Below, one piece after another: positions 2,770-54,807 of a stretch of 64,000 nucleotides of DNA (positions are counted from its first letter, which is position 1; each line of letters begins with the position of its first letter). The stretch comes from Minisyncoccota bacterium (GTDB lineage: Bacteria; Patescibacteriota; Minisyncoccia; Phycocordibacterales; XYD1-FULL-46-19): contig JBBDJY010000016.1 in the NCBI GenBank assembly GCA_040879645.1, positions 11,064 through 75,063 of the forward strand, in the 5' to 3' direction. A program made the position numbers and the translations under genes. The notes beneath the pieces were generated by a model. That model saw only the letters and a program-made list of their open reading frames with translations. It made no database searches and was not told where the DNA came from.

Positions 2770-4950
2770 ATGAAGAAGTTTATGGTGTTGTTTTTGGTGG
2801 TTGGACTGGCCGGTTTTCTGATCGGTTGTCCGCCCGCCGAGCGGACCGTCATCGTCGAGGGTTACCTTGACATCGACGGTTGCGATCAGGCGACTCTCGG
2901 GGCCGAAATCATTCGGCCGGAGTTTCCGGCCGAGGCAACCTTTGACCTCTACAAAGGTGACCGGTCCTCCATGCGTCCTTGGGCGCGGGTGGCTTACAAG
3001 GCCGGCGAAGACGTTGAAATCTACGAAGCGACGGCCGTTGACGGTCAGAAGCTTTTTCTTCAACGCCATGTGATGCTCTGGAACGGACAGTGGTATTACA
3101 CCACTCACCGGTCATTTCCTCATCAGCCGATCTATGTGATCGGTCGGCCGGTGATTGGCCGGGTGGATTATGATGTCAGTACTTTGGTCCGGGCCGTTCT
3201 CTTTGTCGGAATTTTGTCTCATTTAGGCAATATCGGCGATGGTGACGGTGCGGATGCGCCTTGGTTTGCCTTACCTGATCGCAGTAGTGATTGGGAATTG
3301 CCGGCCTTTGCTCTGTTTCGGATTACTGATCCGGCACCGGCCAGTTACCAAATTGTGGCCAGAGTGCCGGGCTGGGAGGCCGGAACGACCGAACGATTTA
3401 CCGGCATTGTCGGCAATCCTCATGGTTGTCCGCCACCGGGACCGGAAACGGTATTCGTGCCGGACACCAGTAACTTGCCGGAAGACGAAGCGGTGGACTT
3501 GGTCAACAGTTTCGACTTGATAGTCGGAACGATTACCCGGGTTTGCAGCGATACCGTCGCTACCGGTCGGGTGATTCGTTCCGTTCCGCCAGCCGGGGCT
3601 TCGGTACCGGTGGGGACGATCATTGACTTGGTTGTTTCCAGTGGGCCGTGTCCGCCAATAAATGTCACCGTTCCCGATTTTACCGGTGGAACGGAAGACG
3701 ATGCTCGTGATCGTCTTGACGACTTAGGTTTTGACGTCTCGGTGACCCGTGTTTGTAGCGACACCGTCGCTGTCGGCCGAGTCACCAGTCAAGATCCCTC
3801 AGCTGGGACTTCGGTACCGGTGGGGACGATCATTAACTTGGTGGTCTCGGATGGGCCGTGTACTTTGCCCAACTTGACGCTTGAGCTTGGTCTCAACCAG
3901 ACTGAATTTCAGGTTGGTGACACGGCGATTTTGACGGTCGAATGGTCCGGTAGTGGTACGCCGTTTGATTTTACGGCAACCTTCCCGGATGCGGTCGGCG
4001 TGGCTGGTCGGGTCTTTGAAAATGGCCTGATCGAGTTCTCGGTTTTGCCCGAGTCGGCTGATTCGTCGGTAGAACTTTTTACCGATGGCCTTGGTCACTT
4101 GGAGATTCACCGACGGTTGTCTTCGGATACCGGTGGCGAATCTTTGCCGATTTTGGTCCGGGTGATTGGGGTTGATGATCAGGAGGTGACGCGGGAAATT
4201 TTCCTGCGTGTCAATCGGCCTGATGTCACTGTTCCTGACTTTGGGGGCCGGACCGAGGACGAGGCTCGTGATGTGTTGGAAGGCTTGGGCCTTGGTGTAT
4301 CGGTGACCCGTGTGTGTAGCGACACTGTCGCTACCGGCCGGGTCATCAGTCAAGACCCTCCAGCCGGGACTTCGGTACCGGCGGGGACAATCATTAACTT
4401 GGTGGTCTCGAGCGGGCCGTGTGCGCCGGTAGAAATGCCGGTGCCGAATATTGTTGGCTTGCCCGAAGCCGAAGCGCGGTCGGCGATTGCTGATGCCGGC
4501 TTGAACCTCGGTGCGATTACTGAGGTCTATCATCCGACAATGACCGCCGGCCGGGTAACTTCTTCCAATCCGGTGGCCGGGACAATTGTACCACCCGGAT
4601 CAGCGGTTGATTTTTCGGTCTCACTCGGACCGGAACCTCCGCCGACCTTGAGTCTTTTGCTTGAGGTTTTGAATTCGACCAATCGTGTTTTTACGGTTGG
4701 TGACATTGTTGCTGTTCGGGCAACGATACTGGGTGGTCAGTCGGGATTCGAAGTCCGGATTGCTTGGCCGAACGCGACGCTCAATTCGTCGACCGGCCAG
4801 GCGCGAGTCTTTGACTTTGCCCAAGTGGCGACCAGTGCCACCTACTCGTCTGGAGCTGAGCCAATCTTTTTGCCCGTTCGCGGGCGAGTAATTGATTCGG
4901 CCGGAGCGGTGGCTGATGCGGAAGTGTTTATCCGCATTAACCCGAATTAG
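2770..4950 (+). CDS. Lipoprotein with at least four tandem PASTA-like domains (repeat unit VPDFTGGTEDDARDRLDDLGFDVSVTRVCSDTVAVGRV..SVPVGTIINLVVSxGPC)
   Basis: RBS GGAGG 7 nt upstream of ATG 2770; lipobox LIGC; repeated PASTA-like modules in translation. Confidence 0.7.
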   Translation: MKKFMVLFLVVGLAGFLIGCPPAERTVIVEGYLDIDGCDQATLGAEIIRPEFPAEATFDLYKGDRSSMRPWARVAYKAGEDVEIYEATAVDGQKLFLQRHVMLWNGQWYYTTHRSFPHQPIYVIGRPVIGRVDYDVSTLVRAVLFVGILSHLGNIGDGDGADAPWFALPDRSSDWELPAFALFRITDPAPASYQIVARVPGWEAGTTERFTGIVGNPHGCPPPGPETVFVPDTSNLPEDEAVDLVNSFDLIVGTITRVCSDTVATGRVIRSVPPAGASVPVGTIIDLVVSSGPCPPINVTVPDFTGGTEDDARDRLDDLGFDVSVTRVCSDTVAVGRVTSQDPSAGTSVPVGTIINLVVSDGPCTLPNLTLELGLNQTEFQVGDTAILTVEWSGSGTPFDFTATFPDAVGVAGRVFENGLIEFSVLPESADSSVELFTDGLGHLEIHRRLSSDTGGESLPILVRVIGVDDQEVTREIFLRVNRPDVTVPDFGGRTEDEARDVLEGLGLGVSVTRVCSDTVATGRVISQDPPAGTSVPAGTIINLVVSSGPCAPVEMPVPNIVGLPEAEARSAIADAGLNLGAITEVYHPTMTAGRVTSSNPVAGTIVPPGSAVDFSVSLGPEPPPTLSLLLEVLNSTNRVFTVGDIVAVRATILGGQSGFEVRIAWPNATLNSSTGQARVFDFAQVATSATYSSGAEPIFLPVRGRVIDSAGAVADAEVFIRINPN

Positions 4951-4955
4951 AATTA

Positions 4956-5134
4956 GTCGAGGTTGAACCTCGACCAATGTTTGTACCCCCGAAGCCAACG
5001 GCTTCGGGGGTTTTCTTTTTTCAAATCGAGATGGGCCGGTCTTTAAAGCTTTAGTCGAGGTTGAACCTCAATACCGAGGTTTAACCTCGTTATTGAACCT
5101 CGTTATTGAGTGTTGGTCGAGGTTGAACCTCGAC
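4956..5134. repeat. REP cluster: GTCGAGGTTGAACCTCGAC and ATACCGAGGTTTAACCTCGGTAT palindromes (at least four copies)
   Basis: Perfect and near-perfect 19-23-bp palindromes read directly; same family at 6969-7093, 13257-13322, 13711-13809, 34630-34648 and 35337-35398. Confidence 0.85.
4985..5020 (+). terminator. Rho-independent terminator (cccccgaagccaacggcttcggggg followed by T-run)
   Basis: GC-rich hairpin plus T-tract directly after the PASTA gene stop. Confidence 0.6.
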
Positions 5135-6968: not shown

Positions 6969-7093
6969 ATACCGAGGTTTAACCTCGGTATTGACGTTAT
7001 ATTTAGCCACGATAACGAGGTTAAACCTCGGTATTGAGTATTAGTCGAGGTTGAACCTCGACCTAGTCATTAATCGAGGTTAAACCTCAATCA
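6969..7093. repeat. REP cluster (four palindromes of the GAGGTT-AACCTC family)
   Basis: Direct reading; intergenic between murB and gatB. Confidence 0.85.
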
Positions 7094-7146
7094 TCACCTC
7101 AATCATCAGTGTCGGCGTAGTGAGAAAAGGGTGGGAGCGTGATATA

Positions 7147-8625
7147 ATGCAAGCGATGGCAAAATCAGAGTACAAATTAACCGTCGGTTTGGAAATTCAC
7201 GCCGAATTAAAAACGCGAACCAAGATGTTTTGTCAGTCGGCCAATGATTCGGATGAGAAGCGGCCGAATGTCAATATTTGCCCGATTTGTTTGGGTCATC
7301 CCGGTACCTTGCCGGTGATTAATAAAGCGGCGGTGCGGTCAGTCCTTTTGGTCGGCCACGCGCTTGGTGGCCGTTTGGCCGACTTTACCGAATTTGACCG
7401 CAAAAACTATTTTTATCCCGATATTCCCAAGGGCTATCAAATCAGTCAGTACAAATACCCCTTGGTGGCCGGCGGCGAATTGGCCGGGGTGCAAATTACC
7501 CGCATTCACTTGGAAGAAGATACCGCCCGATCGCAACACGACCCTAAAACCGGCGAGAGTTTGGTTGATTTTAATCGGGCCGGTGTGCCGTTAATGGAAT
7601 TAGTCACCGAACCGGTGATTAAAAATGCCAAACAAGCTGGCGATTTTGCCCGCGAATTAAAATTACTGCTTGGGCCGGAATATTTAAATGTTTCGGCCGC
7701 CAATTTGGAAAAAGGCGAAATGCGGGTGGAAGCCAATATTTCGGTCAGTACCAATGACTATCTCGGGACCAAGGTGGAGGTTAAAAACCTTAATTCTTTT
7801 CGAGCGGTGGAAAAAGCGATTGACTATGAATTTGCCCGCCAGCGGGATTTACTGGCATCCGGCGGAACGGTCGTCCAAGAGACGCGAGGTTGGGACGAAA
7901 ACAACCAACAAACTTTCAGTCAACGGCAAAAAGAAATGTCTCATGATTATCGCTACTTTCCCGATCCCGATTTACCCAAATTAAAATTAAGCGCCGTGCC
8001 CGAATTAACCGCTTTGGCGGATTCTTTGCCGGAATTGCCGGCCGAAAAAAGCCGGCGTTTTCACGCCGATTACGGTCTTAAGGCCGAAGATATTAAAGTC
8101 ATCATCGCCAGTGCCAAATTAAGTGCTTGGTTTGAAGAGGTGGTTGGTCAAATGCCCGTCCGACCGGGTCATCCGGGCGGGCCCGCCGACGCGGAGAAAA
8201 ACCGTCTGGCGCAAACCGCCGCCAATTATATTGTTTCCGATTTGACCGGATTGTTGGCCGGTGATTTTAGTCGTTTGCCGTCGCCGGCCAACTTGGCCGA
8301 ATTGATGTTAATGATTAAGGACGGACAAGTGTCGTCTCGTGGAGCCAAAGATATTTTATCGTTAATGATTGCTGACAATCGATCGCCGCAAGCCATCGCC
8401 GAGGCCGAAAACTTATTCCAAAAAAGTGATCAGACCGAATTAACAGTGATTATTGAAAAGGTCATTGCCGACCAACCGGCGGTGGTCGCCGATTTTCGCG
8501 GTGGCAATGACAAGGTATTGCAATTTTTAATCGGCCAAGGAATGAAAGAGTCCAAAGGGACGGCTAATCCGGCGGTGCTGGCCAAAATGTTTATTGAGTC
8601 GATAAAAAAATCGACCGATAAATAA
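7147..8625 (+). CDS. gatB: Asp/Glu-tRNA(Asn/Gln) amidotransferase subunit B; carries an in-frame insertion of about 16 aa from a GC-rich palindromic element at 8154-8190
   Basis: LEIHAELKT..ICPICLGHPGTLPV GatB signature; ORF runs from 7120, likely start MQAMAKS at 7147. Confidence 0.9.
   Translation: MQAMAKSEYKLTVGLEIHAELKTRTKMFCQSANDSDEKRPNVNICPICLGHPGTLPVINKAAVRSVLLVGHALGGRLADFTEFDRKNYFYPDIPKGYQISQYKYPLVAGGELAGVQITRIHLEEDTARSQHDPKTGESLVDFNRAGVPLMELVTEPVIKNAKQAGDFARELKLLLGPEYLNVSAANLEKGEMRVEANISVSTNDYLGTKVEVKNLNSFRAVEKAIDYEFARQRDLLASGGTVVQETRGWDENNQQTFSQRQKEMSHDYRYFPDPDLPKLKLSAVPELTALADSLPELPAEKSRRFHADYGLKAEDIKVIIASAKLSAWFEEVVGQMPVRPGHPGGPADAEKNRLAQTAANYIVSDLTGLLAGDFSRLPSPANLAELMLMIKDGQVSSRGAKDILSLMIADNRSPQAIAEAENLFQKSDQTELTVIIEKVIADQPAVVADFRGGNDKVLQFLIGQGMKESKGTANPAVLAKMFIESIKKSTDK
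8154..8190. repeat. GC-rich palindromic element copy E1 (GCCCGTCCGACCGGGTCATCCGGGCGGGCCCGCCGAC) inside the gatB CDS, in frame
   Basis: Near-identical to the reverse complement of 26728-26770 and to 48185-48213. Confidence 0.8.
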
Positions 8626-13256: not shown

Positions 13257-13322
13257 ATACCGAGGTTAAACCTCGGTATTATGGCTTAAAATAACGCTTA
13301 TAACGAGGTTAAACCTCGGTAT
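13257..13322. repeat. REP doublet (two ATACCGAGGTTAAACCTCGGTAT palindromes separated by tatggcttaaaataacgcttata)
   Basis: Nearly identical about 66-bp block repeated at 13711-13777. Confidence 0.85.
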
Positions 13323-13443: not shown

Positions 13444-13665
13444 ATGTTTGAAGAAGAGAGGCAAGTCAACGGAGAGCGAGATTTGGCCGCTTGGAATCAG
13501 GAACAAATTGCCGAGATGCTGGGGGATGACAATCGTTATTTCGCCGGCCAGCGTTTCGGTCATAGTCCGACCAAGCAAGAAGCCGTCAGACATTATGTCG
13601 AATGTGGCGGACCGACAGATTTCGCCAGGCGAAATGCGAAGAATCCGCGTTTCTATCGGTCGTAA
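13444..13665 (+). CDS. Small hypothetical protein (73 aa)
   Basis: RBS GGAGGA 6 nt upstream of ATG 13444; strong terminator immediately downstream; bracketed by REP doublets. Confidence 0.5.
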   Translation: MFEEERQVNGERDLAAWNQEQIAEMLGDDNRYFAGQRFGHSPTKQEAVRHYVECGGPTDFARRNAKNPRFYRS

Positions 13666-13668
13666 CTC

Positions 13669-13700
13669 AAAAGGCAGGGGAGACTCCCCTGCCTTATTTT
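13669..13700 (+). terminator. Rho-independent terminator (aggcaggggagactcccctgcct + TTATTTTT)
   Basis: Perfect 9-bp stem plus T-run. Confidence 0.7.
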
Positions 13701-13710: not shown

Positions 13711-13809
13711 ATACCGAGGTTAAACCTCGGTATTATGGCTTAAAACAACGCTTATACCGAGGTTAAACCTCGGTATTATCTTTTTTTTGGCCCGAGGTTT
13801 AACCTCGGG
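13711..13809. repeat. REP doublet plus a third variant palindrome (cccgaggtttaacctcggg)
   Basis: Direct reading. Confidence 0.85.
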
Positions 13810-13826
13810 CCAAGTCAAAAAAGGTT

Positions 13827-14825: not shown

Positions 14826-15012
14826 AAAAATAAATGGTTAAATAAGAATGAATAAAATATCTGGCCAAACGACAGCCGTATCTTTATTATACAGAAAAAT
14901 GCCAATTGACCAATCAAGGCAAATGGACTAGAGAGTGTCACGAAGTTTAACCTCGGGCCGGGCTCGGATTGAATTTGGTCATTTGGGTGATTATCGGTTA
15001 TAATTCTTTTAT

Positions 15013-17518: not shown

Positions 17519-17520
17519 GA

Positions 17521-17546
17521 CAGCCCCGAAGGGCTGTCTTTGCAGT
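17521..17546 (+). terminator. Rho-independent terminator (gacagccccgaagggctgtc + TTT)
   Basis: Hairpin after the oxidase gene. Confidence 0.55.
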
Positions 17547-17921
17547 CGGTTGGACAGAATATGGAAACTGTCCTGCTCTAGTTATTACCCACCAATATCC
17601 AAGAGTCTTGTTCTTGATTGATATTGGTTTTGTGCGTGGGGTTCCTGTAAAGGAAGTCGTCTTTCGCTCAAGCACAATAAGAGCGATTGACCAAGCCGTT
17701 GCCGACAACAAGACTACGACAACGGCCATTGATTTAATTATATCTCACTCGCTGTCAATTTCAAGGGCTTTTATTAGACTTCTGGTTTTTTCATTTCCGG
17801 CCCCGAACCTCCGTCTTTGACCGGCACAAATACCACAAGCGATTTTAGAATGTTTTCTTTTTCGTTTGTAGTTCATTTAATAATTGTAAAAGAAAATGCC
17901 TACCGTTGCCAATAGTAAATG

Positions 17922-17946
17922 TTATCAAACACCGGGTGTTTGATAA
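17922..17946. repeat. Left flanking palindrome TTATCAAACACCGGGTGTTTGATAA of the RAYT at 17925-18596
   Basis: Perfect palindrome; near-identical copy at 18626-18650. Confidence 0.8.
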
Positions 17947-18596
17947 TCTTCTTTAGCGCCACTGGTTTCAACCCATTTTTTATAACTTTGGCCGGGGTTT
18001 GGCCCGTCCATTTGGTCCATGATTATTTTGGGTTTAAGTAATTCGCCCCAACGATTTTCATTGGTGTAGTCGCTAAAACTTGACCAACGATATTCTGTTT
18101 CTCGATTATTATAGTCAATCTCCCTTGCGTTTAAGTGGACGTAGGCCGAAGCATAAAGTAATTGCTCATTGTCTTTAATGTGAACAGCGCGAAAAGGTCC
18201 TTGAAAAAGGTGTCCAGATTGTTGATATCTGGTATTGAAATACTTGGTATAACCGTTAAGAATCTTTTGCATGTAGGTGGAAACTCCGTTATCCACATTT
18301 GATTGGACAATCAAATGAAAATGGTTCGGCATCAAACAAAAGGCGATCAATGTCACTAGACGATTTTCGATGAGGGTTTCAATGTCTTGATGGTTAAAGC
18401 CGAAATTGTTTTCTTTTATAAATTTTTTTGCATGCGATCCGATATTATTGATACTGCGGGCTGATTGTAAATGAAGAATATACAATAAAAATCTGGCACG
18501 ATCTAAGTCATCTTTAAAGATATCGCATTTAAGGTTTCCTCGGTTAACTAAGTGAAAATATTCACCGGCGACAAAAGGAGTTTTTCGATAAGTCAT
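17925..18596 (-). CDS. REP-associated tyrosine transposase (RAYT; IS200/IS605 TnpA-like HUH Y1 transposase)
   Basis: HUH motif NHFHLIVQ, C-terminal RWSSFSDY tyrosine region, N-terminal YHLVNRG motif. Confidence 0.8.
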   Translation of the reverse strand: MTYRKTPFVAGEYFHLVNRGNLKCDIFKDDLDRARFLLYILHLQSARSINNIGSHAKKFIKENNFGFNHQDIETLIENRLVTLIAFCLMPNHFHLIVQSNVDNGVSTYMQKILNGYTKYFNTRYQQSGHLFQGPFRAVHIKDNEQLLYASAYVHLNAREIDYNNRETEYRWSSFSDYTNENRWGELLKPKIIMDQMDGPNPGQSYKKWVETSGAKEDYQTPGV

Positions 18597-24003: not shown

Positions 24004-24076
24004 GCCAGCATAGCTCAGTTGGTAGAGCAACGGTTTTGTAAACCGTAGGTCGTGGGTTCGAATCCCTCTGCTGGCT
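24004..24076 (+). tRNA. tRNA-Thr (anticodon TGT)
   Basis: Cloverleaf read by eye: acceptor GCCAGCA/TGCTGGC, D-arm GCTC..GAGC, anticodon stem ACGGT/ACCGT with loop TTTGTAA, T-arm GTGGGTTCGAATCCC; no encoded CCA. Confidence 0.8.
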
Positions 24077-24530: not shown

Positions 24531-25607
24531 AAAGTCAGAATCTGTTACTGGTCTCGATTCTATCATAAAATCATTCCATTTCATGCTAAAATGAGTAGAT
24601 GAAGAAAAATAATATTATCATCTATCAAGCTAAATCAGGTGCTCTTGAGTTCAAGAGTGATTTGAAAGAAGATACTATTTGGGCATCACAAATCCAAATA
24701 GCCGAGGCTTTTAAGGTAAATGTTCGTACAGTAAACGAACATATAATAAACATTTACAAAACAAAAGAACTATTTAAGAAAGGAACTATCCGGAAATTCC
24801 GGATAGTTCAAAAAGAAGGAAACAGAGAAATTTCTCGTGATATCCAGCACTATAACTTAGACATTATTTTGTCAGTTGGATATAGAGTTAACTCAAAAAA
24901 AGCAACTAAGTTTAGGCAATGGGCCACCAAAACCCTTAAAGACCATTTAGTTAAAGGATATACGATAAATCGAAAAAGAATCGATAAAAACTATCTTGAG
25001 TTTTTAAGATCAGTCGAAGAAGTTAAAAAACTTCTTCCCCAAGGGAATACCCTGTCAACAAAAGATACCTTGGAGCTAATCAAATTCTTTGCCGGCACTT
25101 GGCTTTCTCTGGAGGCCTACGATAAATCAACATTTTCTAAACAGGGCCTAACTAAAAAACAAGTCAAAATCACAGCCGATGAATTGGAGAACGCTATTGT
25201 CGATTTACGGCATAATCTAATCTCACAAAAAGAAACGACGGACATCTTTGCTCAAGAAAAATCAACCGGTTCCATTGCTGGCATTGTGGGGAATGTATTC
25301 CAAGGTTTTAATGGTAAAAACCTCTATCCAACCGTAGAAGAAAAGGCCGCCCATCTTTTATATTTTATAGTCAAAAACCACCCCTTTATTGATGGAAACA
25401 AGCGAAGTGGAGCTTTTGCTTTTGTTTGGTTTTTGAACAAAGCCGGTATTTTAAATAGAGATAGTTTTACTCCCGAAGCATTAACGGCTTTAACAATTTT
25501 AGTGGCTGAGAGTAATCCGAGTGATAAAGAAAAAGTTGTTGGTTTGATTTTGAATTTATTAAGGTGATTTAACTTTTTATTCAATCCCAAATGATTGCCC
25601 CATTCTG
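24521..25607 (+). mobile_element. tRNA-Thr-associated islet bounded by about 45-bp direct repeats (24471-24520 and 25608-25650, both with the ccctcggcggatgctttcggc variant), carrying only a RhuM-Fic/Doc gene
   Basis: Direct repeats read directly; AT-rich cargo; no integrase present. Confidence 0.55.
24599..25567 (+). CDS. RhuM-family virulence-like protein fused to a C-terminal Fic/Doc domain (HPFIDGNKRSG motif)
   Basis: N-terminal RhuM-like pattern (IIYQ..NLDIILSVGYRVNSKKATKFRQWAT); C-terminal Fic/Doc motif HxFx(D)GNKR. Confidence 0.7.
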   Translation: MKKNNIIIYQAKSGALEFKSDLKEDTIWASQIQIAEAFKVNVRTVNEHIINIYKTKELFKKGTIRKFRIVQKEGNREISRDIQHYNLDIILSVGYRVNSKKATKFRQWATKTLKDHLVKGYTINRKRIDKNYLEFLRSVEEVKKLLPQGNTLSTKDTLELIKFFAGTWLSLEAYDKSTFSKQGLTKKQVKITADELENAIVDLRHNLISQKETTDIFAQEKSTGSIAGIVGNVFQGFNGKNLYPTVEEKAAHLLYFIVKNHPFIDGNKRSGAFAFVWFLNKAGILNRDSFTPEALTALTILVAESNPSDKEKVVGLILNLLR

Positions 25608-29475: not shown

Positions 29476-29746
29476 ATGTTCTTTATTTTTTATTTCACTT
29501 AAATTTTGAAAAAATTTAATAAAATTAACAAAACTAAATAGTTGTTCCAACTATGCCTAATAGGAATATAATCGGAGTCTCGGGCTTGAAAGTAATAGCC
29601 GGTCAATGCCGGCAATTCTTTGATGATCTGTTTTAATCGGGAGTTTCAATCAATGGATAGCCAAATCAGGCCTAAAATCAGGCGTTTTTGACCGGGAAAA
29701 TCACTTCTCTTTTTTGGGTAAATATGCTAGAATAGAGGGTATAAAT

Positions 29747-32299
29747 ATGGCCAAGAAAGATAATTCAGAGGCAAAAAAAAGCCGTAAATATACGGCTGAT
29801 AATATTGTTGTTTTGGAAGGATTGGAACCGGTCCGCAAACGCCCGGGGATGTATATCGGCTCCACCGGTCCGGACGGACTGCATCACCTGTTGGTAGAGA
29901 TTTTTGATAATGCCCGAGACGAGGCGATGAACGGCTATGCCGACGAGATTGAGGTCGCCCTTCTGCCTGACGGGGCGGTGCGGGTAGTGGACAACGGTAA
30001 TGGGATTCCGGTAGAAATCCACAAAAAGACTAAAGTTTCCACCTTGGAAACGGTGATGACGGTATTGCATGCCGGCGGTAAATTTGGCGGTGACGGTTAC
30101 AAAATTTCCGGCGGTTTACACGGTGTCGGCGCCTCAGTCGTCAATGCTTTGTCGGAATACTTGGTGGCCGAAGTCCATCGCGACGGCGGTAAATTCAGTC
30201 AGGAGTACAAACAGGGAATTAAAAAAGCCAAAGTAAAAAAAGTCGCTTCGTCCAAACTTTCCGGCACGGTGATTACTTTCAAGCCCGACAAAACAATTTT
30301 TTCCGAAACCGAATATGATTGGCAACGGGTCGTCAGTCATTTGCGTGGTCAGGCTTATTTGGTCAAAGGTTTGCGGATCAGAGTAATCGATGCTCGGCTG
30401 GTGACCGAAAAAATCAATACCGACGATGTCTTTTTCTTGAGTGAATTGGGTTTGGAAGCACCGTCCCGGACTTTCTATTTTGAAGGCGGACTTTTGTCTT
30501 TTGTTAAATTTCAAAACCAAGACGAAAAACCGGTCCACAAAAATATTTTCTACGTGGAAAAAGAAGCGAGTGAGGTGACGGTCGAGATTGCCCTGCAGTA
30601 TATTGATGATATTTCTCCGCGAGAAATCAGCTATACCAATAATACGATCACCCCGGAAGGAGGGATGCACTTGACCGGTTTTCGTACCGCTTTGACCCGA
30701 ACCTTAAATGATTATGCGCGGAAGAATAATTTAATTAAAGACAAGGAAGAGAATTTTACCGGTGATGATGTCCGTGAGGGGATTGTCGTTGTTGTTTCGG
30801 TCAAGTTGCGCGATCCGCAATTTGAAGGCCAGACCAAAGCCAAATTGGGCAGTGTGGAAGCCCGCAGTGCCACCGATTCGGTTTTTGGTGAAGCCTTCTC
30901 GATGTTTTTAGAGGAACATCCGGAAGACGCCAAGCAAATTATCGGCAAAGTCACTTTGGCGCTTAAGGCCCGCAAGGCGGCCAAGGCGGCCAAGGATTCG
31001 GTTTTGCGCAAGGGGGCGTTGGAAGGCCTGACTTTGCCGGGAAAACTCGCTGACTGCCAAACCCGTGATGCCTCCGAATCGGAATTGTTTATCGTCGAAG
31101 GCGATTCGGCCGGTGGATGTTTTTTAGGTGATACGAAAGTAGCATTAACCGATGGCCGAGAAGTGTCTTTTAAGGAATTGGTAGAGGAAGATAAAGCCGG
31201 TAAACAAAATTATTGTTATACCATTTCTAATGATGGCCGAGTAGCGGTTGGTCAGATTAAGCATCCCCGTATTACCAAGAGAAATACCGAAGTTATTAAG
31301 GTTATTTTAGATAATGAAGCGGAAATTGAATGTACTCCTGATCATCGTTTTATGCTTCGTGACGGTAGTTTCCGTCAAGCCCGTGAGTTAAAACCCGATG
31401 ATTCTTTGATGCCTCTCTATCGAAAAGTTTCTGAAAAAGGCGGACGAATCACTATTGCCGGATATGAAATGGTTATGAGTCCCGGTCTTAACCACCGAGT
31501 CAAGGCCGTGATAGCTGAGAATAAATTTGCTGATGTTTACGATATCGAAGTGCCGGGGACTCATAATTTTGCTTTAGCCGGCGGAGTTTTTGTTCATAAT
31601 TCAAGTAAACAAGGTCGGGATCGGCGGACGCAGGCGATTTTGCCGTTGCGGGGGAAGATTTTAAATGTTGAACGGGCGCGCTTGGACAAGATGCTTGCCT
31701 CGAAAGAAATCAAATCGCTGGTTATCGCCATTGGGGCGGCGATTGGCGATACTTTTAATATTGCCAAATTACGCTATCACAAGATTATCATCGCCACTGA
31801 CGCTGATGTGGACGGCGCGCACATTCGAACATTACTCTTGACCCTCTTTTACCGCTATTATAAGCCCTTGATTGAAGGTGGTTTTATCTATGTTGCTCAA
31901 CCACCGCTTTATAAAATCAAGAAAGGCAAAACGGTGGAATACGCCTATACCGAAGAAGGTAAAAGTCAAATTATTAAAAAACTTGGTGCCAATCCGGCGA
32001 TTGAAATGGAGGTGGCCGATGAGAGTGATGGCGAAATTGAAATAACCGAAGATGAAGCGGAAGAAAAAGCCGCCAAATCATCGAAAATCGGTCTCCAGCG
32101 CTACAAGGGTCTGGGTGAAATGAATCCGGAAGAACTATGGGAGACAACGATGAATCCCGACAGTCGAGTCTTAAAACAAGTAACCATCAATGAAGCCGAA
32201 GAGGCCGACAAAACTTTTGATGTTTTAATGGGTAATGAGGTTGAACCGCGCCGGTTGTTTATTCAAACCCATGCCAAGTTGGCCAAGGTGGATGTTTAA
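29747..32299 (+). CDS. gyrB: DNA gyrase subunit B containing a 161-aa mini-intein
   Basis: GyrB ATPase and Toprim motifs; extein junction EGDSAGG|[intein]|SSKQGRDR; ORF from 29714, likely ATG 29747. Confidence 0.9.
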   Translation: MAKKDNSEAKKSRKYTADNIVVLEGLEPVRKRPGMYIGSTGPDGLHHLLVEIFDNARDEAMNGYADEIEVALLPDGAVRVVDNGNGIPVEIHKKTKVSTLETVMTVLHAGGKFGGDGYKISGGLHGVGASVVNALSEYLVAEVHRDGGKFSQEYKQGIKKAKVKKVASSKLSGTVITFKPDKTIFSETEYDWQRVVSHLRGQAYLVKGLRIRVIDARLVTEKINTDDVFFLSELGLEAPSRTFYFEGGLLSFVKFQNQDEKPVHKNIFYVEKEASEVTVEIALQYIDDISPREISYTNNTITPEGGMHLTGFRTALTRTLNDYARKNNLIKDKEENFTGDDVREGIVVVVSVKLRDPQFEGQTKAKLGSVEARSATDSVFGEAFSMFLEEHPEDAKQIIGKVTLALKARKAAKAAKDSVLRKGALEGLTLPGKLADCQTRDASESELFIVEGDSAGGCFLGDTKVALTDGREVSFKELVEEDKAGKQNYCYTISNDGRVAVGQIKHPRITKRNTEVIKVILDNEAEIECTPDHRFMLRDGSFRQARELKPDDSLMPLYRKVSEKGGRITIAGYEMVMSPGLNHRVKAVIAENKFADVYDIEVPGTHNFALAGGVFVHNSSKQGRDRRTQAILPLRGKILNVERARLDKMLASKEIKSLVIAIGAAIGDTFNIAKLRYHKIIIATDADVDGAHIRTLLLTLFYRYYKPLIEGGFIYVAQPPLYKIKKGKTVEYAYTEEGKSQIIKKLGANPAIEMEVADESDGEIEITEDEAEEKAAKSSKIGLQRYKGLGEMNPEELWETTMNPDSRVLKQVTINEAEEADKTFDVLMGNEVEPRRLFIQTHAKLAKVDV
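31118..31600 (+). other. Mini-intein inside gyrB (Cys1 ... His-Asn, with +1 Ser); no homing endonuclease domain
   Basis: Block A CFLGDTKVAL, block B TPDHRF, blocks F/G VYDIEVPGTHNFALAGGVFVHN|S; 483 nt in frame. Confidence 0.8.
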
Positions 32300-32343: not shown

Positions 32344-32544
32344 ATGACTACACAAGAATTAGAAAAATTAAACAGATTAGAAAAAGAAGTAAAAGTCCTA
32401 AAAACTTTAGTGGCTAATATCGTGCCTTTTGATAATGAGGGAGAGTATAAAAAATCTTTTGAAAATGAGATGAAGAAACTTTCAAAAGAAAAGACCATTT
32501 TCGAATATTCCGAAAAAGGAAGCTTAATTAAAAATCTTGCTTAA
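32344..32544 (+). CDS. Putative antitoxin (66 aa) of a RelE/ParE toxin-antitoxin pair
   Basis: Small ORF whose stop overlaps the toxin start (TAAATG); AT-rich islet. Confidence 0.5.
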   Translation: MTTQELEKLNRLEKEVKVLKTLVANIVPFDNEGEYKKSFENEMKKLSKEKTIFEYSEKGSLIKNLA

Positions 32545-32814
32545 ATGTATCGGATTTTATTTACAGCTAAATCAATCAAGTCGCTAAAAAAACTTCCTAA
32601 ATCCATTCAAGCGAAAACCGATTTATTAGTTGATATTCTGATTATTGATTATCGAGATAATCGGCTAAAGGCCAAAAAATTAAATACTAATCAATCATTA
32701 TTTTCTTTTAGAGTAACAAAAGACTATAGAGTGGTTTTTATGTTTGCAAATAGCTCAACTATTAAAGTTTTAGATATTAAACATCGGAAAGATATCTATA
32801 AAAAATTAAAATAA
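32545..32814 (+). CDS. RelE/ParE-family type II toxin
   Basis: Pattern YRILFTAKSIKSLKKL...FRVTKDYRVVF..IKVLDIKHRKDIYK typical of the RelE/ParE fold. Confidence 0.65.
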   Translation: MYRILFTAKSIKSLKKLPKSIQAKTDLLVDILIIDYRDNRLKAKKLNTNQSLFSFRVTKDYRVVFMFANSSTIKVLDIKHRKDIYKKLK

Positions 32815-32828: not shown

Positions 32829-34583
32829 TTAGTCCTCAGTTTCTATTTTATCTAAAAATTCAGCCAAAGTCATTTGGGTGCTTTGGCCCGAATCACGGTC
32901 TTCGACGGTGATTTTTTTGTCAGTCATTTCTTTGTCGCCCAAGACGAATAAGTAGGGGACTTTTTGCATTTTGGCGGTGCGGATTTTTTTGCCTAAAGTG
33001 TCATTATTTTCGTCCAATTCAATTCGGACATTTTTTTCGCGCAATTGAGCGGCAATTTCTTTGGCGTAATCCGAATGTTTGTCGCCAATAGGGATGATTT
33101 TTACCTGAATCGGTGATAGCCAAAAAGGGAAAGCCCCGGCAAAATGTTCAATCATAATGGCCATAAAGCGTTCGAGCGAACCGGCAATGGCCCGGTGGAT
33201 CATTACTGGCCGTTCCTCTTTACCGTCCGGTCCGACATAGGTCAGATCGAATCGTTCGGGCATGACAAAGTCCAATTGGGCGGTAGCCAATTGCCGTTCG
33301 CGACCCAAAGAATCTTTAAACATAAAATCAAGTTTCGGGCCGTAAAAAGCGGCTTCACCTTCCACTCGTTTAAAATCCAATTTGGCGTGGCGGGCGGCAT
33401 TTTCAAGTATTTTTTCGGCTTGGTCCCAAATTTTTTCTTCGCCCAGATAATCGGTTAATTTTTTACTGTCGCGGACCGACAATGAGACCCAGTAATTACC
33501 TTCTCGGAACATACCGAGAGTGGAATAAAATTCTTTAATGACGGTGATAATATTACCGATTTCGTTTTCAATTTGGTCAAAAGTACAGAAAACATGGCCG
33601 TCGTCTTGAGTAATACTTCTGACTCGGGCCAAGCCTAAAAGTTCCCCGGCTTGTTCGTCGCGATAGACCATTGTCGTTTCGGCAAAGCGAATCGGCAATT
33701 CTTTGTAACTGCGCATTTTGCCGGCATAGATTTGAGTGTGATGCGGGCAGTTCATCGGCTTCATCACAAATTCCGTTTCCGACATTCCGGTAACTCGGAA
33801 TAAATCGTCTTTGAATTTTTCCCAGTGGCCGGAAGTTTCGTAGAGATCTTTTTTGGTGATATGAGGAATGGTGACTTGTTCATAGCCAAAGCGGGATTGC
33901 AGTGTGTTGATCTTGTCCATAATCAGATTACGCATCAAGGTGCCTTTGGGTGTGAATAAAGGCAAGCCGGAGCCGACCAAATCGGAAAAGGTGAATAAGT
34001 CCAATTCTTTACCCAATTTGCGATGGTCGCGTTTTTCGGCTTCGGCCCGGTGGCTAATGAATTGTTCCAATTCTTGTTTATCGGCAAAAGCCAAACCATA
34101 GATGCGGATCAGCATTTTATTTTTTTCATCTCCGCGCCAGTAAGCGCCGGCGACGCGCTCCAATTTGAAACTGTCGGGCGGTATGGTTGCCAGATCATCA
34201 ATGTGGCCACCGGCACAAAGATCGATAAAAGCATGTTCCATTGGTCCGGATTCATAGGTCGTTAAAACTTGGCCGGTGGCGGTTAATTCTTCAATCAATT
34301 CCAGTTTATAGGGATTATCGCGATAGATATTTCGGGCTTGTTCGGGGGTCAGTTCTTGTCGGCGGAAATCATGCCAAGTCGGCAGAAGTTTTTTCATTTC
34401 TTGTTCAATCCGTGGCAGGTCTTTGTCGGAAATGGTTTTGGGTAGATCAAAGTCGTAATAAAAACCGGTGTCAATGGCCGGACCGATGGCCAACTTGGCC
34501 TCCGGATAGAGGTTTAGGACGGCGGCCGCCAGTAGATGAGCGAGGGAATGGCGACGGGCTTCCAAGTCATTTTGTTTATTCAT
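32829..34583 (-). CDS. thrS: Threonine--tRNA ligase (584 aa, lacking the N-terminal TGS domain)
   Basis: HSLAHLLAAAV editing-domain motif and class II core motifs. Confidence 0.85.
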   Translation of the reverse strand: MNKQNDLEARRHSLAHLLAAAVLNLYPEAKLAIGPAIDTGFYYDFDLPKTISDKDLPRIEQEMKKLLPTWHDFRRQELTPEQARNIYRDNPYKLELIEELTATGQVLTTYESGPMEHAFIDLCAGGHIDDLATIPPDSFKLERVAGAYWRGDEKNKMLIRIYGLAFADKQELEQFISHRAEAEKRDHRKLGKELDLFTFSDLVGSGLPLFTPKGTLMRNLIMDKINTLQSRFGYEQVTIPHITKKDLYETSGHWEKFKDDLFRVTGMSETEFVMKPMNCPHHTQIYAGKMRSYKELPIRFAETTMVYRDEQAGELLGLARVRSITQDDGHVFCTFDQIENEIGNIITVIKEFYSTLGMFREGNYWVSLSVRDSKKLTDYLGEEKIWDQAEKILENAARHAKLDFKRVEGEAAFYGPKLDFMFKDSLGRERQLATAQLDFVMPERFDLTYVGPDGKEERPVMIHRAIAGSLERFMAIMIEHFAGAFPFWLSPIQVKIIPIGDKHSDYAKEIAAQLREKNVRIELDENNDTLGKKIRTAKMQKVPYLFVLGDKEMTDKKITVEDRDSGQSTQMTLAEFLDKIETED

Positions 34584-34629
34584 AGGCCAATAATAGCAAG
34601 ATTTTTTGCTTTAGCCAAAGGGTGTTCTT

Positions 34630-34648
34630 AGTCGAGGTTGAACCTCGA
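34630..34648. repeat. REP palindrome GTCGAGGTTGAACCTCGAC upstream of the RAYT
   Basis: Direct reading. Confidence 0.85.
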
Positions 34649-34676
34649 CTAAGAAGTTATTATAATTTAACATAAC

Positions 34677-35423
34677 ATGAGCCGAAATTTTTCTTTCTCT
34701 ATTGATGAGTTCTATCACCTGTATAATCGTGGTAACGATAAGAGGGATATTTTTCTTGATTATCTAGATAGGGAGAGATTTTTAAAATTACTCTATCTTT
34801 GTAATGGTAAAAATGAATTTCATATTCAAAAAATTCTTGACGAGGAACTTTTTTATTTTAATCGAGGTGAGTCTATCGTTGATATTGGAGCTTATTGTTT
34901 GATGGATAATCATTATCATTTATTGGTTAAAGAAAAGATGGAAAATGGCATCAGTCTTTTTATGCAACGATTATCAACGGCATATTCTATGTATTTTAAT
35001 AAAAAACACGATAGAACAGGCGCTTTGTTTGCCGGTCGTTTTAAGGCCAAACATCTTGATGACGATGACTATTTAAAGTATATTTTTGCTTATATTCATT
35101 TAAATCCGATTAAAATAGTTGATGATTTTAGTTGGAAATCCGGAATAGTAAATGATCTGGAAAAGATTAAAAAACATTTGAGCGATTATCGTTATTCGAG
35201 TTACCAAGATTATCTGGAGATCAATCGAGCAGAAACAAGAATCCTGAATAAAGAATCCTTTCCGGAATATTTTGATGATGTTGAAGATTTTAAAAATTAT
35301 CTAGATGATTGGATCAATTACCGAAGAGAAGAATTAGTCGAGGTTGAACCTCGACCAACAAAGGGTCATTCAATCAACAGTCGAGGTTCAACCTCGACTA
35401 GAGTTCTTTCGCTGATTCGATAA
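34677..35423 (+). CDS. REP-associated tyrosine transposase (RAYT), second copy; its 3' end runs into a REP doublet
   Basis: HUH motif NHYHLLVKE; YRYSSYQDY tyrosine region; N-terminal YHLYNRG. Confidence 0.8.
35337..35398. repeat. REP doublet (GTCGAGGTTGAACCTCGAC ... GTCGAGGTTCAACCTCGAC) overlapping the RAYT 3' end and containing the dnaE stop codon
   Basis: Direct reading. Confidence 0.85.
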
Positions 35424-38400
35424 TTAAACTGGGTTCATTATTACGATAAGAGATGCGGCCGCGGAGGGCGACGCATTTTTCCGGCAGTAAAATGTCTTTA
35501 AGTTTGGTGTAGGAACGAGCAAAACAAACGGTTTCTATTTGTCCGGAATAGTCGGCCAGGCGGATAAAGGCCATTAAATCGCCCTTTTTGGAATAAATGG
35601 TTTTGACTTCTTCAATAATACCGCCGATAGTGGCAGTGGCGCCGTCCGGTAAAGTTCGATTGTAATTGATGGTGTTTTCGTTTTTGGTAAATTTATCTTT
35701 AACTCGGTCCAAGGGATGGCCGGAGACATAAAGACCAAGCAATTCTTTTTCCCAAGCAAGAATTTCCGTCAAATCAACTGCCGGGCCGGTTTTTAACTTA
35801 AAAGCCGGCATGCCCGCTTCTTCGGCAATATCGCCAAATAGTGAGTCTTGAGCCGAATCGGCGTTTATTTTTTCCCGATGATAGGCCAAGGCCTCTTCAA
35901 TGTTGTGCAAGAGATCGCCGCGAGTTTGACCGAGATTGTCCAAAGCACCGGCTTTAATTAACGCTTCCAGTGATTTTCGGTTTAAGTTTTTGTGAGTGAT
36001 GCGACCCAGGAAATCGGGATAAGAGCGGTAAGGCCCGCCGGCTTTTCTTTCGGCGACAATCGCTTCGGCAATATCACCGCCTAAGTTTTTGATTGTTTGC
36101 AGGCCAAAGCGGATTTCGTCTCGGTCGGCTCCTTTAGTGACGGTGAAATCACCAAAGCTTTGATTGACATCCGGTGGCAAAACCGGAATATCCATTCGTC
36201 GACATTCGGTGATAATTTCGGCAATTTTTTCAGTGTCGCCCGATTCAGCCGACAGGACGGCGGTCATAAATTCGGCCGGATAATTGGCTTTCATATAGGC
36301 GGTTTGATAGGCGACTCGGCCATAACTGGCGGCATGGGCTTTATTAAAAGCGTAAGCGGCGAAGGGTTTGATGCGATTCCAGAGATCTTCGGCGGTTTTT
36401 TTGTCGATATGGTTTTTGACACAGCCGGATTTGAATTTTTCTTCTTGTTCGGCCATCAGTTTCGGGATTTTTTTACCCATCGCTTTGCGGAATTTATCGG
36501 CATCCAGCCAAGAATAGCCGGCCAATTTGATGGCGGTAATCATCACATCCTCTTGGTAGATAAGTAGGCCGAAACTGCGGCGGAGATCTTCCTTAAGGGC
36601 CGGATGAGGATAATCGACGGTATGAGGATTATGTTTGCGTTTGATGTATTCGGGGATAAATTCCATTGGTCCGGGGCGATAGAGAGCGACCATAGCGTTA
36701 ATATCGTCAATGTTGGTCGGTTTCAATTCTTTTAACCAGCGAGTCATGCCGGCGCCGTTTAATTGGAACAGTCCTTCGGTTTCGCCCCGAGCCAAAAGCC
36801 GAAAAGCTTTTTTGTCGTCTAGAGGAATATCGTCGATGTCAACTTTTTTCTGTCTGATTTTTTCCGCCAAACTGACGGCATCGTTTAAGATGGCAAGATT
36901 TTTCAAGCCGAGAAAGTCAAACTTGGTTAGACCGATGCCGTCTTCGCCGACCGAATACATATCATATTGGGTAATGATGCTCTGACCTTTTGGGTCATAT
37001 TGAACCGGCACATAGTGATCCAAGGTTTGCGGAGCGATAACGACACCGGCGGCGTGAACGGAAATATGCCGAGCCGAACCCTCGATTTTTTTAGCCAAGT
37101 CAATGATTTGCTTGACTTCCGCTTCTTCGGCATACATTTTTTTTAATTCCGGTTCCATTTTTAAGGCGCGGTCAATGGTCATGGCAAAACCCTGTGAACC
37201 AAGTGGGATCAATTTGGCAATTCGGTCACCGGTGGCATAAGGGAAACCCAAAGCCCGGGCGACATCACGGACCGAACCGCGAGCCATCATTGTGCCGAAA
37301 GTTCCAATTTGGGCGACCTTATCTTCGCCGTATTTGACTTTGGCGTATTTGATGATTTCATCTCGTCGATTATCGGCAAAGTCCATATCAATATCCGGCG
37401 CCGATGGGCGGTCGGGATTTAGAAAGCGTTCAAAGGGGATTTGATATTCGAGCGGATCAAGTTTAGTAATATCTAAAGAGTAAGTGGTGATTGAACCGGC
37501 GACCGAACCGCGAATATTGTAAAAAATGTTATTCTCCCTGGCAAAGCGAATCAAATCCTCTACCACCAGAAAATAAGATGAATAACCCTTTAATTTGATG
37601 ATATTTAATTCATAATCCAGGCGTTCGTGGGCCGCTTGGTTGTCACCCAGTCCTTTTTTGATCAAACCGGCCAGACTTAAATCGCGTAACAGCGTGTCGG
37701 CATCGGAGCCGGCCGGCAATTCAAAATTGGGGAAAATAAATTCGCCCAAAGTAATATCCACTTGGCAACGATCGGCAATCCGCCCGGTATTTTTAACCGC
37801 CTCGGGAAAATCACGGTAAATGGTTTCGGCCCGGTCGGGACTGATAAAAGAATAATCGCCGTTTTTCATCGACATTTCGCTTTGACCGACTTCATGGCCG
37901 GTATTGATGGCCACTAAAGTATCGTGAGCCTCGGCATCAGCCGGATCAATATAATGGGAATCCCAAGTGGCGACTAACGGTAAGTTAAATTCGCCGGCCA
38001 GAGTTTTTAAGTGCCGGCCGATGCGGTCAATGTCGGGGACTTCTTCATGGCGCATTACTTCCAAAAAATAATTATTCGGACCGAAAATAGCCAAAAATTC
38101 TTTAACGATGGCCCGTCCGCGGTCTAAATCATCGGCGGCCAAAGCCCGAGACAATTCGCCACCCGGACAACCGGACAGGCAAATCAAGCCCTCGGCATGT
38201 TCGGCGAGGATGTCTTTGTCAATCCGCGGTTTGTAATAAAAGCCCTCGAGGTTGGCTTTGGTTGTCAAGCGGATAAGGTTGCGATAACCTTCATTATTTT
38301 CGGCCAACAGCGTCAGGTGATAACGGCGAGCATCAATGCCGGATTCTTTATCTTGCCGACCACGGACGGCGACATAGGCCTCAACGCCGAGAATTGGTTT

Positions 38401-38577
38401 AATGTCGGCTTGGTGGCATTTTTGATAGAATTCAATCAGGCCGTACATATTACCGTGATCGGTCAGGGCAATGGCCGGCATATTAAATTCCTTGGCTTTA
38501 GCCACTAATTCGCTGATTTTAGACAGACCGTCAAGTAGACTGTAATGGCTATGAGTATGGAGGTGAACAAATGACAT
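35398..38577 (-). CDS. dnaE: DNA polymerase III alpha subunit
   Basis: PHP-domain N-terminus [17 protein letters not shown]; polymerase core motifs; ORF extends to 38601. Confidence 0.9.
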
Positions 38578-38797
38578 GGGGGTATTATAGCAAAAAACCA
38601 CTTTGCCTGCAGATCAAGTGTTATTAGGTTAAAACATTATTATAATCACTCTTTATTTGCAATCCCTTTTTCTAAAGATATTGCCTACCTAAGGTAGTCA
38701 ATGGAGTTAAAATTTGTTTCATTGAGATTACTATTGATTACTTGATAATTTTGTTGTAGGATTAAAGTAGAAAACACTCTGAAAGGAGGTGATAATT

Positions 38798-40526: not shown

Positions 40527-40528
40527 TT

Positions 40529-40551
40529 TTGTCAAGGTGACACCTTGACAA
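40529..40551. promoter_or_regulatory. 23-bp palindrome TTGTCAAGGTGACACCTTGACAA
   Basis: Perfect copy of the motif family, between rnhB and rpmF. Confidence 0.5.
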
Positions 40552-40654
40552 AAGATTGGTTATTTTTAACGGTCGAGATGTCAATCCAATGCTTTCCTTG
40601 AAGTGTCCCTAAAAAGTATTGCCAATTATTCGTTTTTCGGCTATAGTACTCTTT

Positions 40655-54523: not shown

Positions 54524-54603
54524 CCCCGTGATTTCCTTTTGGAAACCACGGGCTTTTTGTTTGTCTGTTTGAGCCGGAATTTGTCAAGGTGACACCTTGA
54601 CAA
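54524..54603. promoter_or_regulatory. Conserved intergenic module copy 3: terminator hairpin + GGCTTTTTGTTTGT.. + full palindrome TTGTCAAGGTGACACCTTGACAA (54581-54603)
   Basis: Direct reading. Confidence 0.6.
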
Positions 54604-54807
54604 ATTGGATGGGGTGGACGAGTGCAAAAATTTGACAAATATTCGTCCTTACGCTACACTGGTTCCACAACGGCAAGATTGAGTTATGGTTGGGCCGGTT
54701 TAAGTATCTTGCTAAATCTCTCCATTTGATTTGCGACACGCCTTCAATCTCAATTGAAGGGGACAATTTTTGTTTTTATTATCGGCGATTTTAATAATTC
54801 AATTATT

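Follow-up and report, generated by a model that had tools for sequence, protein, structure and literature searches.

A resident Y1 transposase homologue and its dispersed hairpin family probably form a REPtron/REPIN-like unit in a patescibacterial genome

Repetitive extragenic palindromic (REP) sequences, the REP-associated tyrosine transposases (RAYTs) and the REPIN systems have so far been characterised almost entirely in Proteobacteria. The TnpA_Y1 proteins are divided into subclasses by diagnostic motifs, including a Y-x-x-x-N-P as opposed to a Y-x-x-x-Q tyrosine signature (Quentin et al. 2018, Table 1; PMC6006769), and a canonical REP has the tetranucleotide GT[AG]G at the 5' foot of its hairpin (PMC6006769). 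Subclass 2.1 genes were reported to have no adjoining REP-like sequences (Quentin et al. 2018, PMC6006769), and only Groups 2 and 3 were clearly REP-associated in the survey of Bertels et al. (2017), in which the frequencies of the 16-mers flanking Group 1 genes were far lower. Such genes have also been described as 'TIRYTs', flanked by terminal inverted repeats (TIRs) that in some cases are self-complementary and make up small families (Di Nocera et al. 2013, PMC3733652). We describe here a Y1/HUH tyrosine transposase homologue encoded at 34677-35423 in a 64-kb stretch of contig JBBDJY010000016.1 from a Minisyncoccota bacterium of the Candidate Phyla Radiation (CPR), together with the hairpins that bracket it and the related palindromes dispersed through the same stretch, which we call the window and to which all copy numbers of palindromes refer. 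These are probably the parts of a REPtron/REPIN-like unit, that is, a resident, vertically inherited Y1 gene with its own hairpins, whose hairpin family has multiplied between housekeeping genes. The system is of a known kind in a new place and form: a conserved, fixed-position RAYT relative in a tiny-genome CPR bacterium.

The Y1 gene lies between two occurrences of the same palindrome (Table 1). The exact 19-mer GTCGAGGTTGAACCTCGAC forms the core of the upstream hairpin, whose centre is 37 nt 5' of the ATG, and the downstream doublet consists of a second copy of GTCGAGGTTGAACCTCGAC followed by its central-base complement. A first-pass annotation of this DNA had recognised both, and its placement of the upstream palindrome at 34630 needs correction by a single base; the downstream doublet lies where it was said to be, overlapping both the 3' end of the Y1 gene and the dnaE stop codon. 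This doublet is contained within the last 29 Y1 codons and ends on the first base of that stop codon (35398-35400). Folded as single-stranded DNA (ssDNA), the upstream hairpin has a free energy of -14.2 kcal/mol (z = -7.9), and the downstream doublet folds back on itself as one hairpin whose perfect stem is 21 bp long (-23.5 kcal/mol, z = -8.9).

This association of a Y1 gene with its own hairpin is not peculiar to this locus. From the contexts of homologues and 80 metagenome loci we obtained 59 full-length CPR Y1 genes with adequate flanks, and 42 of these have their own locus-specific palindrome on both sides. Control open reading frames (ORFs) of 150-300 aa from the same loci were positive in three of 133 cases, and all three proved to be further Y1 paralogues with palindromes of their own, so that the true control rate is 0/130; these comparisons strongly support the proposal that the transposase homologue is embedded in its cognate palindrome family. 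The geometry is stereotyped: measured from the start codon, the median centre of the upstream hairpin is at -40 nt (interquartile range -46 to -29), and measured from the stop codon that of the downstream hairpin is at +11.5 nt (interquartile range -1 to +21). An AGG-N3-7-CCT hairpin top is common to 24 of the 42 palindromes. Hairpin tops tend to differ more the further the proteins have diverged (Spearman rho = 0.34; none of 2000 permutations gave a higher value). Bracketing by cognate palindromes is also seen at the loci L002, L003 and L007, and the REPtron arrangement is generalised over a CPR clade.

The gene is a long-term resident of its site. L002 is collinear with window positions 21.2-47.0 kb, the common order being RF1, S2, pheS, pheT, gyrB, thrS, Y1, dnaE, RNase HII, NusB-NUDIX, RNase III, SMC and RNB, and the thirteen collinear proteins are 42-77% identical between the two; the Y1 proteins, at 71%, are among the best conserved. 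In the window the Y1 gene is flanked by thrS (32829-34583, -) and dnaE (35398-38601, -), both confirmed with Pfam, and the L002 orthologue occupies the identical thrS/dnaE gap with the identical 19-mer flanking it, including a copy upstream of the gene, within spacer sequence that is unrelated. A second syntenic pair, L003 and L005, has Y1 proteins that are 58% identical. We saw no near-identical Y1 duplicates in the window or in the loci of relatives, where paralogues within a locus are divergent and have different hairpins. The fixed thrS/dnaE position across such deep divergence is RAYT-like persistence; it fits the RAYT pattern of a gene in single copy with vertical inheritance and argues against an active insertion sequence (IS).

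The second component of the proposed unit is the dispersed palindrome family. The first-pass annotation had reported such a family, with a sister form, outside the Y1 locus, and both are readily found: a 15-nt core, CGAGGTTNAACCTCG, common to what we call the G- and T-types, is present at 17 sites (at most one mismatch) at six separate loci, compared with none in 100 dinucleotide-preserving shuffles. AGG-N5-CCT sites number 24 in the window, and 14 of them extend into longer palindromes where 0.1 would be expected. The outer stems around the core are variable, and the members occur both as singlets and as doublets of 62-66 nt. Apart from the copies at the Y1 gene, exact G-type 19-mers start at 4956, 5116 and 7044 and a degenerate one at 5054, and the T-type sister form, ATACCGAGGTTTAACCTCGGTAT, has seven copies, at 5071, 6969, 7012, 13257, 13300, 13711 and 13754. 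The ssDNA fold z-scores of these hairpins range from -5 to -10, and every copy is extragenic save the doublet at the Y1 3' end. The first cluster comprises G-type copies at 4956-4974, 5054-5072 (the degenerate one) and 5116-5134 and a T-type copy at 5071-5093, and in the second the T-type doublet D1 (6969-7034) is followed by a G-type copy (7044-7062) and then by a degenerate one whose core is at 7075-7089. The abutment or overlap of G- and T-type copies at 5054-5093 and 7012-7062 suggests insertion next to existing copies. An Rfam scan of the window returned one tRNA only, and the palindromes match no described RNA family.

The genes next to these repeats encode a PASTA-domain protein, a PKD/fn3 protein, MurB, GatB, transketolase, a pfkB-family kinase and fructose-bisphosphate aldolase; they are mostly housekeeping genes, and the earlier description of the repeats as bounding surface-protein genes does not fit them. 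The gatB ORF at 7120-8625 (+), with a GTG start and 501 codons' worth of protein (501 aa), is probably over-extended, an identical database protein being 466 aa long; a start near 7225, as that protein implies, leaves the cluster at 6969-7093 clearly extragenic.

The four doublets have an identical 43-nt centre-to-centre spacing and each folds as one long ssDNA hairpin. The first-pass annotation had asked whether doublets are inverted in the manner of bacterial interspersed mosaic elements (BIMEs), and by the central base this holds for 6969/7012 and 35337/35380 and fails for 13257/13300 and 13711/13754. D2 and D3 (Table 1) are identical at 64 of 66 positions, including 19 of the 20 positions of the non-palindromic spacer, and their outer flanks are unrelated, which leads us to reject a segmental duplication as their origin, since the sequence outside the 66-nt units is unrelated. 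D1 lies in the opposite orientation and matches the reverse complement of D2 at 56 of 66 positions, and the 66-nt unit as a whole thus recurs at 85-97% identity in both orientations.

Comparison of REP positions between relatives, which the first-pass annotation had thought would reveal movement, does show differences. Three gatB-anchored loci (L112, L113 and L114, gatB 65-68% identical) are collinear with window positions 2.7-19.4 kb. No member of the palindrome family is present in the collinear stretch of L112 or L113. The PKD-murB spacer of L114 carries the same core (GGCCCGAGGTTTAACCTTGGGCC) and that of the window has none; the murB-gatB spacer, occupied in the window, carries the same core (TGTCCCGAGGTTAAACCTCGGGACA, 4589-4613) together with a related hairpin in L114 and is 26 nt long and empty of REPs in L113; and the PASTA-PKD spacer holds a REP cluster in the window and none in L113 or L114. 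The GGCCCGAGGTTTAACC..GGGCC form, seen in the window as the singlet at 13787-13813, is also present in L114 at 3584-3606. The differing occupancy of orthologous spacers, taken with the 85-97% recurrence of the doublets, indicates turnover of the repeats.

Beyond these loci, a scan of a genome collection from which the source genome is absent gave, with the exact 19-mer, 21 single matches, mostly in high-GC Actinomycetota and probably due to chance; the only Patescibacteria among them are L023 and L024. At L023 the hairpin core, a singlet (2440-2458), falls within an ORF of 469 aa, and a Y1 gene of 36% identity lies about 640 nt away. At L024 (5405-5423) and L114 (3584-3606 and 4589-4645) the core again takes the form of singlets, here outside genes, and the stretches fetched contained no detected Y1 gene. 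We also observed that D2 and D3 lie on either side of a 73-aa ORF at 13444-13665 (+), which has no Pfam match and a terminator-like hairpin of its own at 13672-13700, and that the transketolase-pfkB spacer of L112 contains an unannotated 77-aa ORF at the corresponding position.

The protein had been called a 248-aa HUH/Y1 protein from its sequence, and the Pfam Y1_Tnp profile bears this out at 40.8 bits against a cutoff of 23. It is identical to an NCBI entry annotated 'MAG: transposase [Candidatus Paceibacterota bacterium]'. Across 30 aligned homologues H79, H81, Y139, H141, L142 and N143 are invariant and P144 is conserved in at least 90%, and an N-terminal YH-x-YNRG and a distal Y-SS-Y are also invariant or nearly so. 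The tyrosine signature is YIHLNP, of the Y-x-x-x-N-P type and not the Y-x-x-x-Q of IS200. An AlphaFold2 (AF2) model (predicted local distance difference test, pLDDT, 84.5; predicted template modelling score, pTM, 0.81) is disordered in its last 20 residues (229-248), and its top match among solved structures is 4er8_A, E. coli TnpA_REP bound to a REP hairpin (E = 2.7e-6), followed by the IS608, ISDra2 and IS200 transposases. Neither the protein alone nor a 30-sequence profile gave a relevant match when searched by sequence against the PDB, the link to 4ER8 and IS608 being made via the fold search only.

The conserved body of the protein comprises residues 1 to about 220 (to about position 35340), near which the homologues end, and the last 28 or so residues are a read-through into the downstream doublet. 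In the L002 orthologue the loop of the downstream palindrome (GGTTGAACC) serves as the TGA stop codon, and in the window the palindrome is read in a different frame, giving a tail, ELVEVEPRP...LIR, that runs through the doublet. Palindrome-encoded N- or C-terminal extensions are found in several database homologues too, and we note that palindromes of this kind create artefactual extensions of called genes at either end, of which the VEVEPRP tail of the window protein is an example.

By these features the protein is a class 2 TnpA_Y1, or RAYT sensu lato. The core motifs of subclass 2.1 are present as NHYH, LFAGRF (the family consensus being LFEG, with F-[QEA] in place of W-Q), YIHLNP and YSSY. 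The helix-turn-helix (HTH) tail of that subclass (Bac_DnaA_C, HTH_23 or HTH_28) is absent, Y1_Tnp being the only Pfam domain in the protein and in a second Y1 protein encoded in the window (Table 1). A segment around residues 44-66 is additional in the CPR proteins. Among cultured organisms, a tblastn search of plasmids gave nearest relatives that are about 30% identical; these are 287-295-aa 'transposases' with a Bac_DnaA_C-like HTH tail, and the C-terminal HTH domain is present in the 30%-identical L110 and L111. A 90%-clustered database gave 3,896 matches, with all named top matches in Patescibacteria lineages, and an exhaustive search gave 1,273 clusters at 50% identity (E <= 1e-30). To judge from motifs and domains, this CPR-wide clade appears closest to subclass 2.1, the 'Group 1 RAYTs', whose median length is about 238 aa, without the C-terminal HTH of that subclass.

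Among the closest known systems is the E. coli RayT/TnpA_REP REPtron (subclass 2.2, Bertels Group 2, structure 4ER8). It shares with the window the HUH/Y1 chemistry motifs and Y-x-x-x-N-P signature, the best structural match, cognate palindromes flanking the gene with an inverted doublet among them, palindrome subtypes dispersed between genes in BIME-like clusters, and a single-copy gene at a fixed position. However, the two proteins share only about 12% identity when aligned by structure, the window protein falls below the NCBIfam equivalog cutoff, it has about 220 aa where the E. coli protein has 165 and carries a conserved YSSY tail, and its hairpins are near-perfect, with no GTAG foot and no bulge, and of modest observed copy number. 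Subclass 2.1 and its TIRYT-TIRtrons match in the key motifs (NH[YF]H, F[QEA], Y[IV]HLNP and a proximal SS motif), and there too the repeats overlap the 5' and 3' ends of the gene, but the window protein lacks the distal HTH and has the extra segment, its hairpins are short and not TIRs of the GGGGWSAS type, and cognate hairpins accompany 42 of 59 CPR genes where Quentin et al. reported none (PMC6006769). Like the REPINs of Pseudomonas and Enterobacteria (Bertels & Rainey 2011, PMC3116915), the doublets combine two REPs and a short spacer into one long hairpin, recur whole in both orientations and are linked to a single-copy Y1 gene; unlike them, each window REP is a perfect palindrome, so that 'inverted' is defined by the central base only and applies to two of four doublets, the 64 kb hold three doublets plus the one at the gene, and the partner protein is outside RAYT Groups 2 and 3. 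A literature search found no paper linking RAYTs, REPs or REPINs with Patescibacteria or the CPR, which, given its incomplete coverage, is weak evidence of novelty.

By analogy with the chemistry of the IS608 and ISDra2 TnpA proteins and of E. coli TnpA_REP, we infer how such a unit would work. When single-stranded, for example on the lagging-strand template, the palindrome would fold into a hairpin, whose conserved top would be bound by a Y1 dimer. The HUH-bound metal and Tyr139 would then cut beside the hairpin, giving a 5'-phosphotyrosine link, and strand transfer would excise hairpin units or copy them to new sites, often beside existing copies. Binding, cleavage and repeat movement would in this scheme all be functions of the one protein, with its catalysis responsible for mobilising the repeats. 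We speculate, from consensus matches, that by binding its own upstream hairpin, whose loop provides the -35 hexamer of a promoter-like site (Table 1), the protein could also regulate its expression.

The window also contains a second, divergent Y1 gene with hairpins of its own at either end (Table 1). Its palindrome, TTATCAAACACC[G/C]GGTGTTTGATAA, is different from the hairpin of the 34677 gene, and no further copies of it are present within the window. The paralogue and about 400 nt of adjoining unassigned DNA (17519-17924) occupy a site that corresponds to a spacer of 50-66 nt in the collinear L112 and L113. Elsewhere, at L041, L045, L051 and L102, two divergent Y1 paralogues lie within a few kb of each other, sometimes in tandem, and the second paralogue has its own palindrome pair in L041, L045 and L051, which suggests that hairpin-specific Y1 genes accumulate locally.

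Table 1. Coordinates of the Y1 genes, their hairpins and the dispersed palindromes in the window
Feature	Position	Strand	Remarks
REP cluster	4956-5134		Between PASTA-domain gene and PKD/fn3 gene
REP cluster	6969-7093		Between murB and gatB
T-type doublet D2, 66-nt unit	13257-13322		After transketolase C-terminal gene
T-type doublet D3 (13711-13776) and singlet TTGGCCCGAGGTTTAACCTCGGGCCAA (13787-13813)	13711-13813		
Degenerate REP core CGAAGTTTAACCTCG	14941-14955		Between pfkB and aldolase gene
Paralogue hairpin TTATCAAACACCGGGTGTTTGATAA	17922-17946		Overlaps paralogue stop codon
Divergent Y1 paralogue	17925-18596	-	223 aa; 37% identity to 34677 protein (tblastn); Pfam Y1_Tnp 37.8 bits
Paralogue hairpin TTATCAAACACCCGGTGTTTGATAA	18626-18650		Upstream of paralogue start codon
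Upstream cognate hairpin TTCTTAGTCGAGGTTGAACCTCGACTAAGAA	34625-34655		14-bp perfect stem; core 34631-34649
Promoter-like site TTGAAC-17-TATAAT	34638-34666	+	Sigma-70-like; consensus match at 10/12 positions
Y1/HUH tyrosine transposase homologue	34677-35423	+	248 aa; intact ORF; Pfam Y1_Tnp
Downstream inverted doublet (REPIN-like)	35335-35400		35337-35355 and 35380-35398; 24-nt spacer

Several observations weigh against interpreting the locus as a REPtron/REPIN-like unit, or against the first-pass description of a classic RAYT/REP/BIME organisation, which we do not retain. The protein passes the Pfam Y1_Tnp profile and fails the more specific one, NCBIfam NF047646 (REP_Tyr_transpos), at 42.1 bits against a cutoff of 80 and over residues 64-146 only; its motifs are of the Group 1 type; and only two of the four doublets are strictly inverted. 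The hairpins have no GT[AG]G guide: in an oriented alignment the tetranucleotide is at the foot of 0 of 17 copies, the feet being TAGT, ATAC or GGCC, each paired with its complement. Most relatives have no dispersed copies within 10 kb on either side of the Y1 gene, and with hairpins seen only at the gene in most of them, proliferation is the exception. Within the window only the G-type flanks the gene, and the T-type, which is more numerous, might be served by another Y1 protein encoded outside it. The site of the second paralogue is empty in two relatives, and some Y1 units are thus gained or lost. The correlation between protein and hairpin distances could partly reflect simple linkage.

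The most serious competitor is an ordinary autonomous IS200-like IS, in which the Y1 gene and its end hairpins are the mobile unit and the dispersed palindromes are solo-end derivatives, or resemble miniature inverted-repeat transposable elements (MITEs), of an element that is selfish and active. The stereotyped positions of the hairpins at both gene ends do resemble the subterminal hairpins of IS200/IS605 elements, the fold also matches the TnpA proteins of IS608 and ISDra2 (subclass 1.1), most relatives have hairpins only at the gene, and the second paralogue is a unit at a site empty in L112 and L113. IS200, too, has a hairpin beside its promoter and start codon. Against such an element, the Y1 gene has the same thrS/dnaE position in a genome whose housekeeping proteins are 42-77% identical and is itself, at 71%, among the best conserved, and we found no near-identical copies, the paralogues within a locus being divergent and having different hairpins. 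The window gene differs from the IS200/IS605 family in having no multiple identical copies and in conserved synteny across deep divergence. Its protein differs too, with Y-x-x-x-N-P in place of Y-x-x-x-Q and a length of about 220 aa instead of about 150 aa, some 70 aa more, and the gene has no tnpB partner, its neighbours being thrS and dnaE. We consider an IS of this kind unlikely.

We give little credence to a second alternative, in which the hairpins are mainly regulatory or structural, acting as an operator at the Y1 promoter and as terminators or mRNA stabilisers elsewhere, the Y1 protein is a domesticated ssDNA-binding or nicking host factor, and the repeats have spread by recombination or replication slippage. 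In its favour, the loop of the upstream hairpin supplies the -35 hexamer of TTGAAC-17-TATAAT, the best sigma-70-like match within 34400-35600, which is a putative promoter by consensus only, and the ATG follows the -10 box by 11 nt; comparable -10-like boxes are found between hairpin and ATG in many relatives. The overlap of the stop codon by the downstream hairpin, the strong conservation and vertical inheritance of the gene, and the published flanking 16-mer frequencies of Group 1 RAYTs, far below those of Groups 2 and 3, fit a regulatory role as well. A role of this sort accounts poorly for doublets that recur whole, spacer included, in both orientations and between unrelated flanks, for the variable occupancy of orthologous spacers among relatives, and for the invariance of the catalytic HUH and tyrosine residues. 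We also rejected intrinsic termination as the main role of the REPs, as separate terminators, each a G+C-rich hairpin with a T-run, adjoin them (e.g. 4985-5015 and 13672-13700) and the terminator-scanner matches on the REPs themselves have weak T-tails.

A reading of the doublets as attC-like sites of an integron-type system, with the 13444-13665 ORF as a cassette moved by a tyrosine recombinase and not by Y1, is very improbable and we reject it: the two near-identical doublets do flank that ORF, and the hairpin loops GTTTAAC/GTTAAAC and GTTCAAC/GTTGAAC fit the degenerate attC core consensus, RYYYAAC/GTTRRRY, but no tyrosine recombinase domain was found in the 24 window ORFs run through Pfam, a set that includes all ORFs of 240-350 aa save for one overlapping frame, the stems are perfect with no extrahelical bases, there is only one 'cassette', and the statistical association is with Y1 genes.

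Other features of the window are recorded here in their own right. A third extragenic palindrome family, TTTTGTCAAGGTGACACCTTGACAAAA, has four copies, at 2504-2530, 2553-2573, 40527-40553 and 54579-54607; it may be another REP family, since its form (TTGTCAAGGTGACACCTTGACAA) agrees with the AAGG-N5-CCTT top that is typical of the hairpins beside Y1 genes in relatives. No Y1 gene adjoins it within the window, however, and TTGACA is present on both of its strands, so that a promoter or operator element is another possibility. The gyrB gene (29714-32299, +; 861 aa) contains a mini-intein (Pfam Intein_splicing, residues 477-629) inside its Toprim region, and its L002 orthologue is 685 aa long with no intein domain listed. 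Between gyrB and thrS, at 32344-32814 (+), a small ORF is followed by a gene for an 89-aa ParE-family toxin; the two are probably a type II toxin-antitoxin pair, for which there is no room in L002, where gyrB and thrS abut. A tRNA gene (24004-24076) precedes a RhuM/Fic-domain gene (24599-25567), and with the Fic gene having no counterpart in the collinear L002, the segment 24004-25567 may be a small inserted island next to the tRNA.

Returning to the REPtron/REPIN-like unit that we favour, its wider setting may be described tentatively, in terms we think possible and would not yet expect to hold. The CPR-wide Y1 clade, which at 50% identity comprises about 1,270 clusters, may be made up of vertically inherited genes that are long-term residents, each locked to its own hairpin pair, at the -35 region and at the stop codon, with a protein that mainly binds its own hairpins, for self-regulation or for host ssDNA processing, and with REP/REPIN-like proliferation as an occasional by-product. 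If this is true, the 'REP-less' RAYTs of the Group 1 or subclass 2.1 type do have cognate hairpins, and REPIN-RAYT-like systems persist even in the most streamlined bacterial genomes.

Group 1, or subclass 2.1, is the largest RAYT-like group and has been reported without REPs, whereas its CPR relatives are systematically bracketed by hairpins, and in at least one lineage such genes appear to have seeded a dispersed repeat family with turnover between orthologous spacers. The locus provides a compact, sequence-defined protein-hairpin pair for testing substrate recognition by Y1 nucleases, and with the divergent paralogue the window offers two orthogonal pairs. It also allows us to ask whether systems of this kind are selfish, domesticated or regulatory in strongly streamlined genomes.

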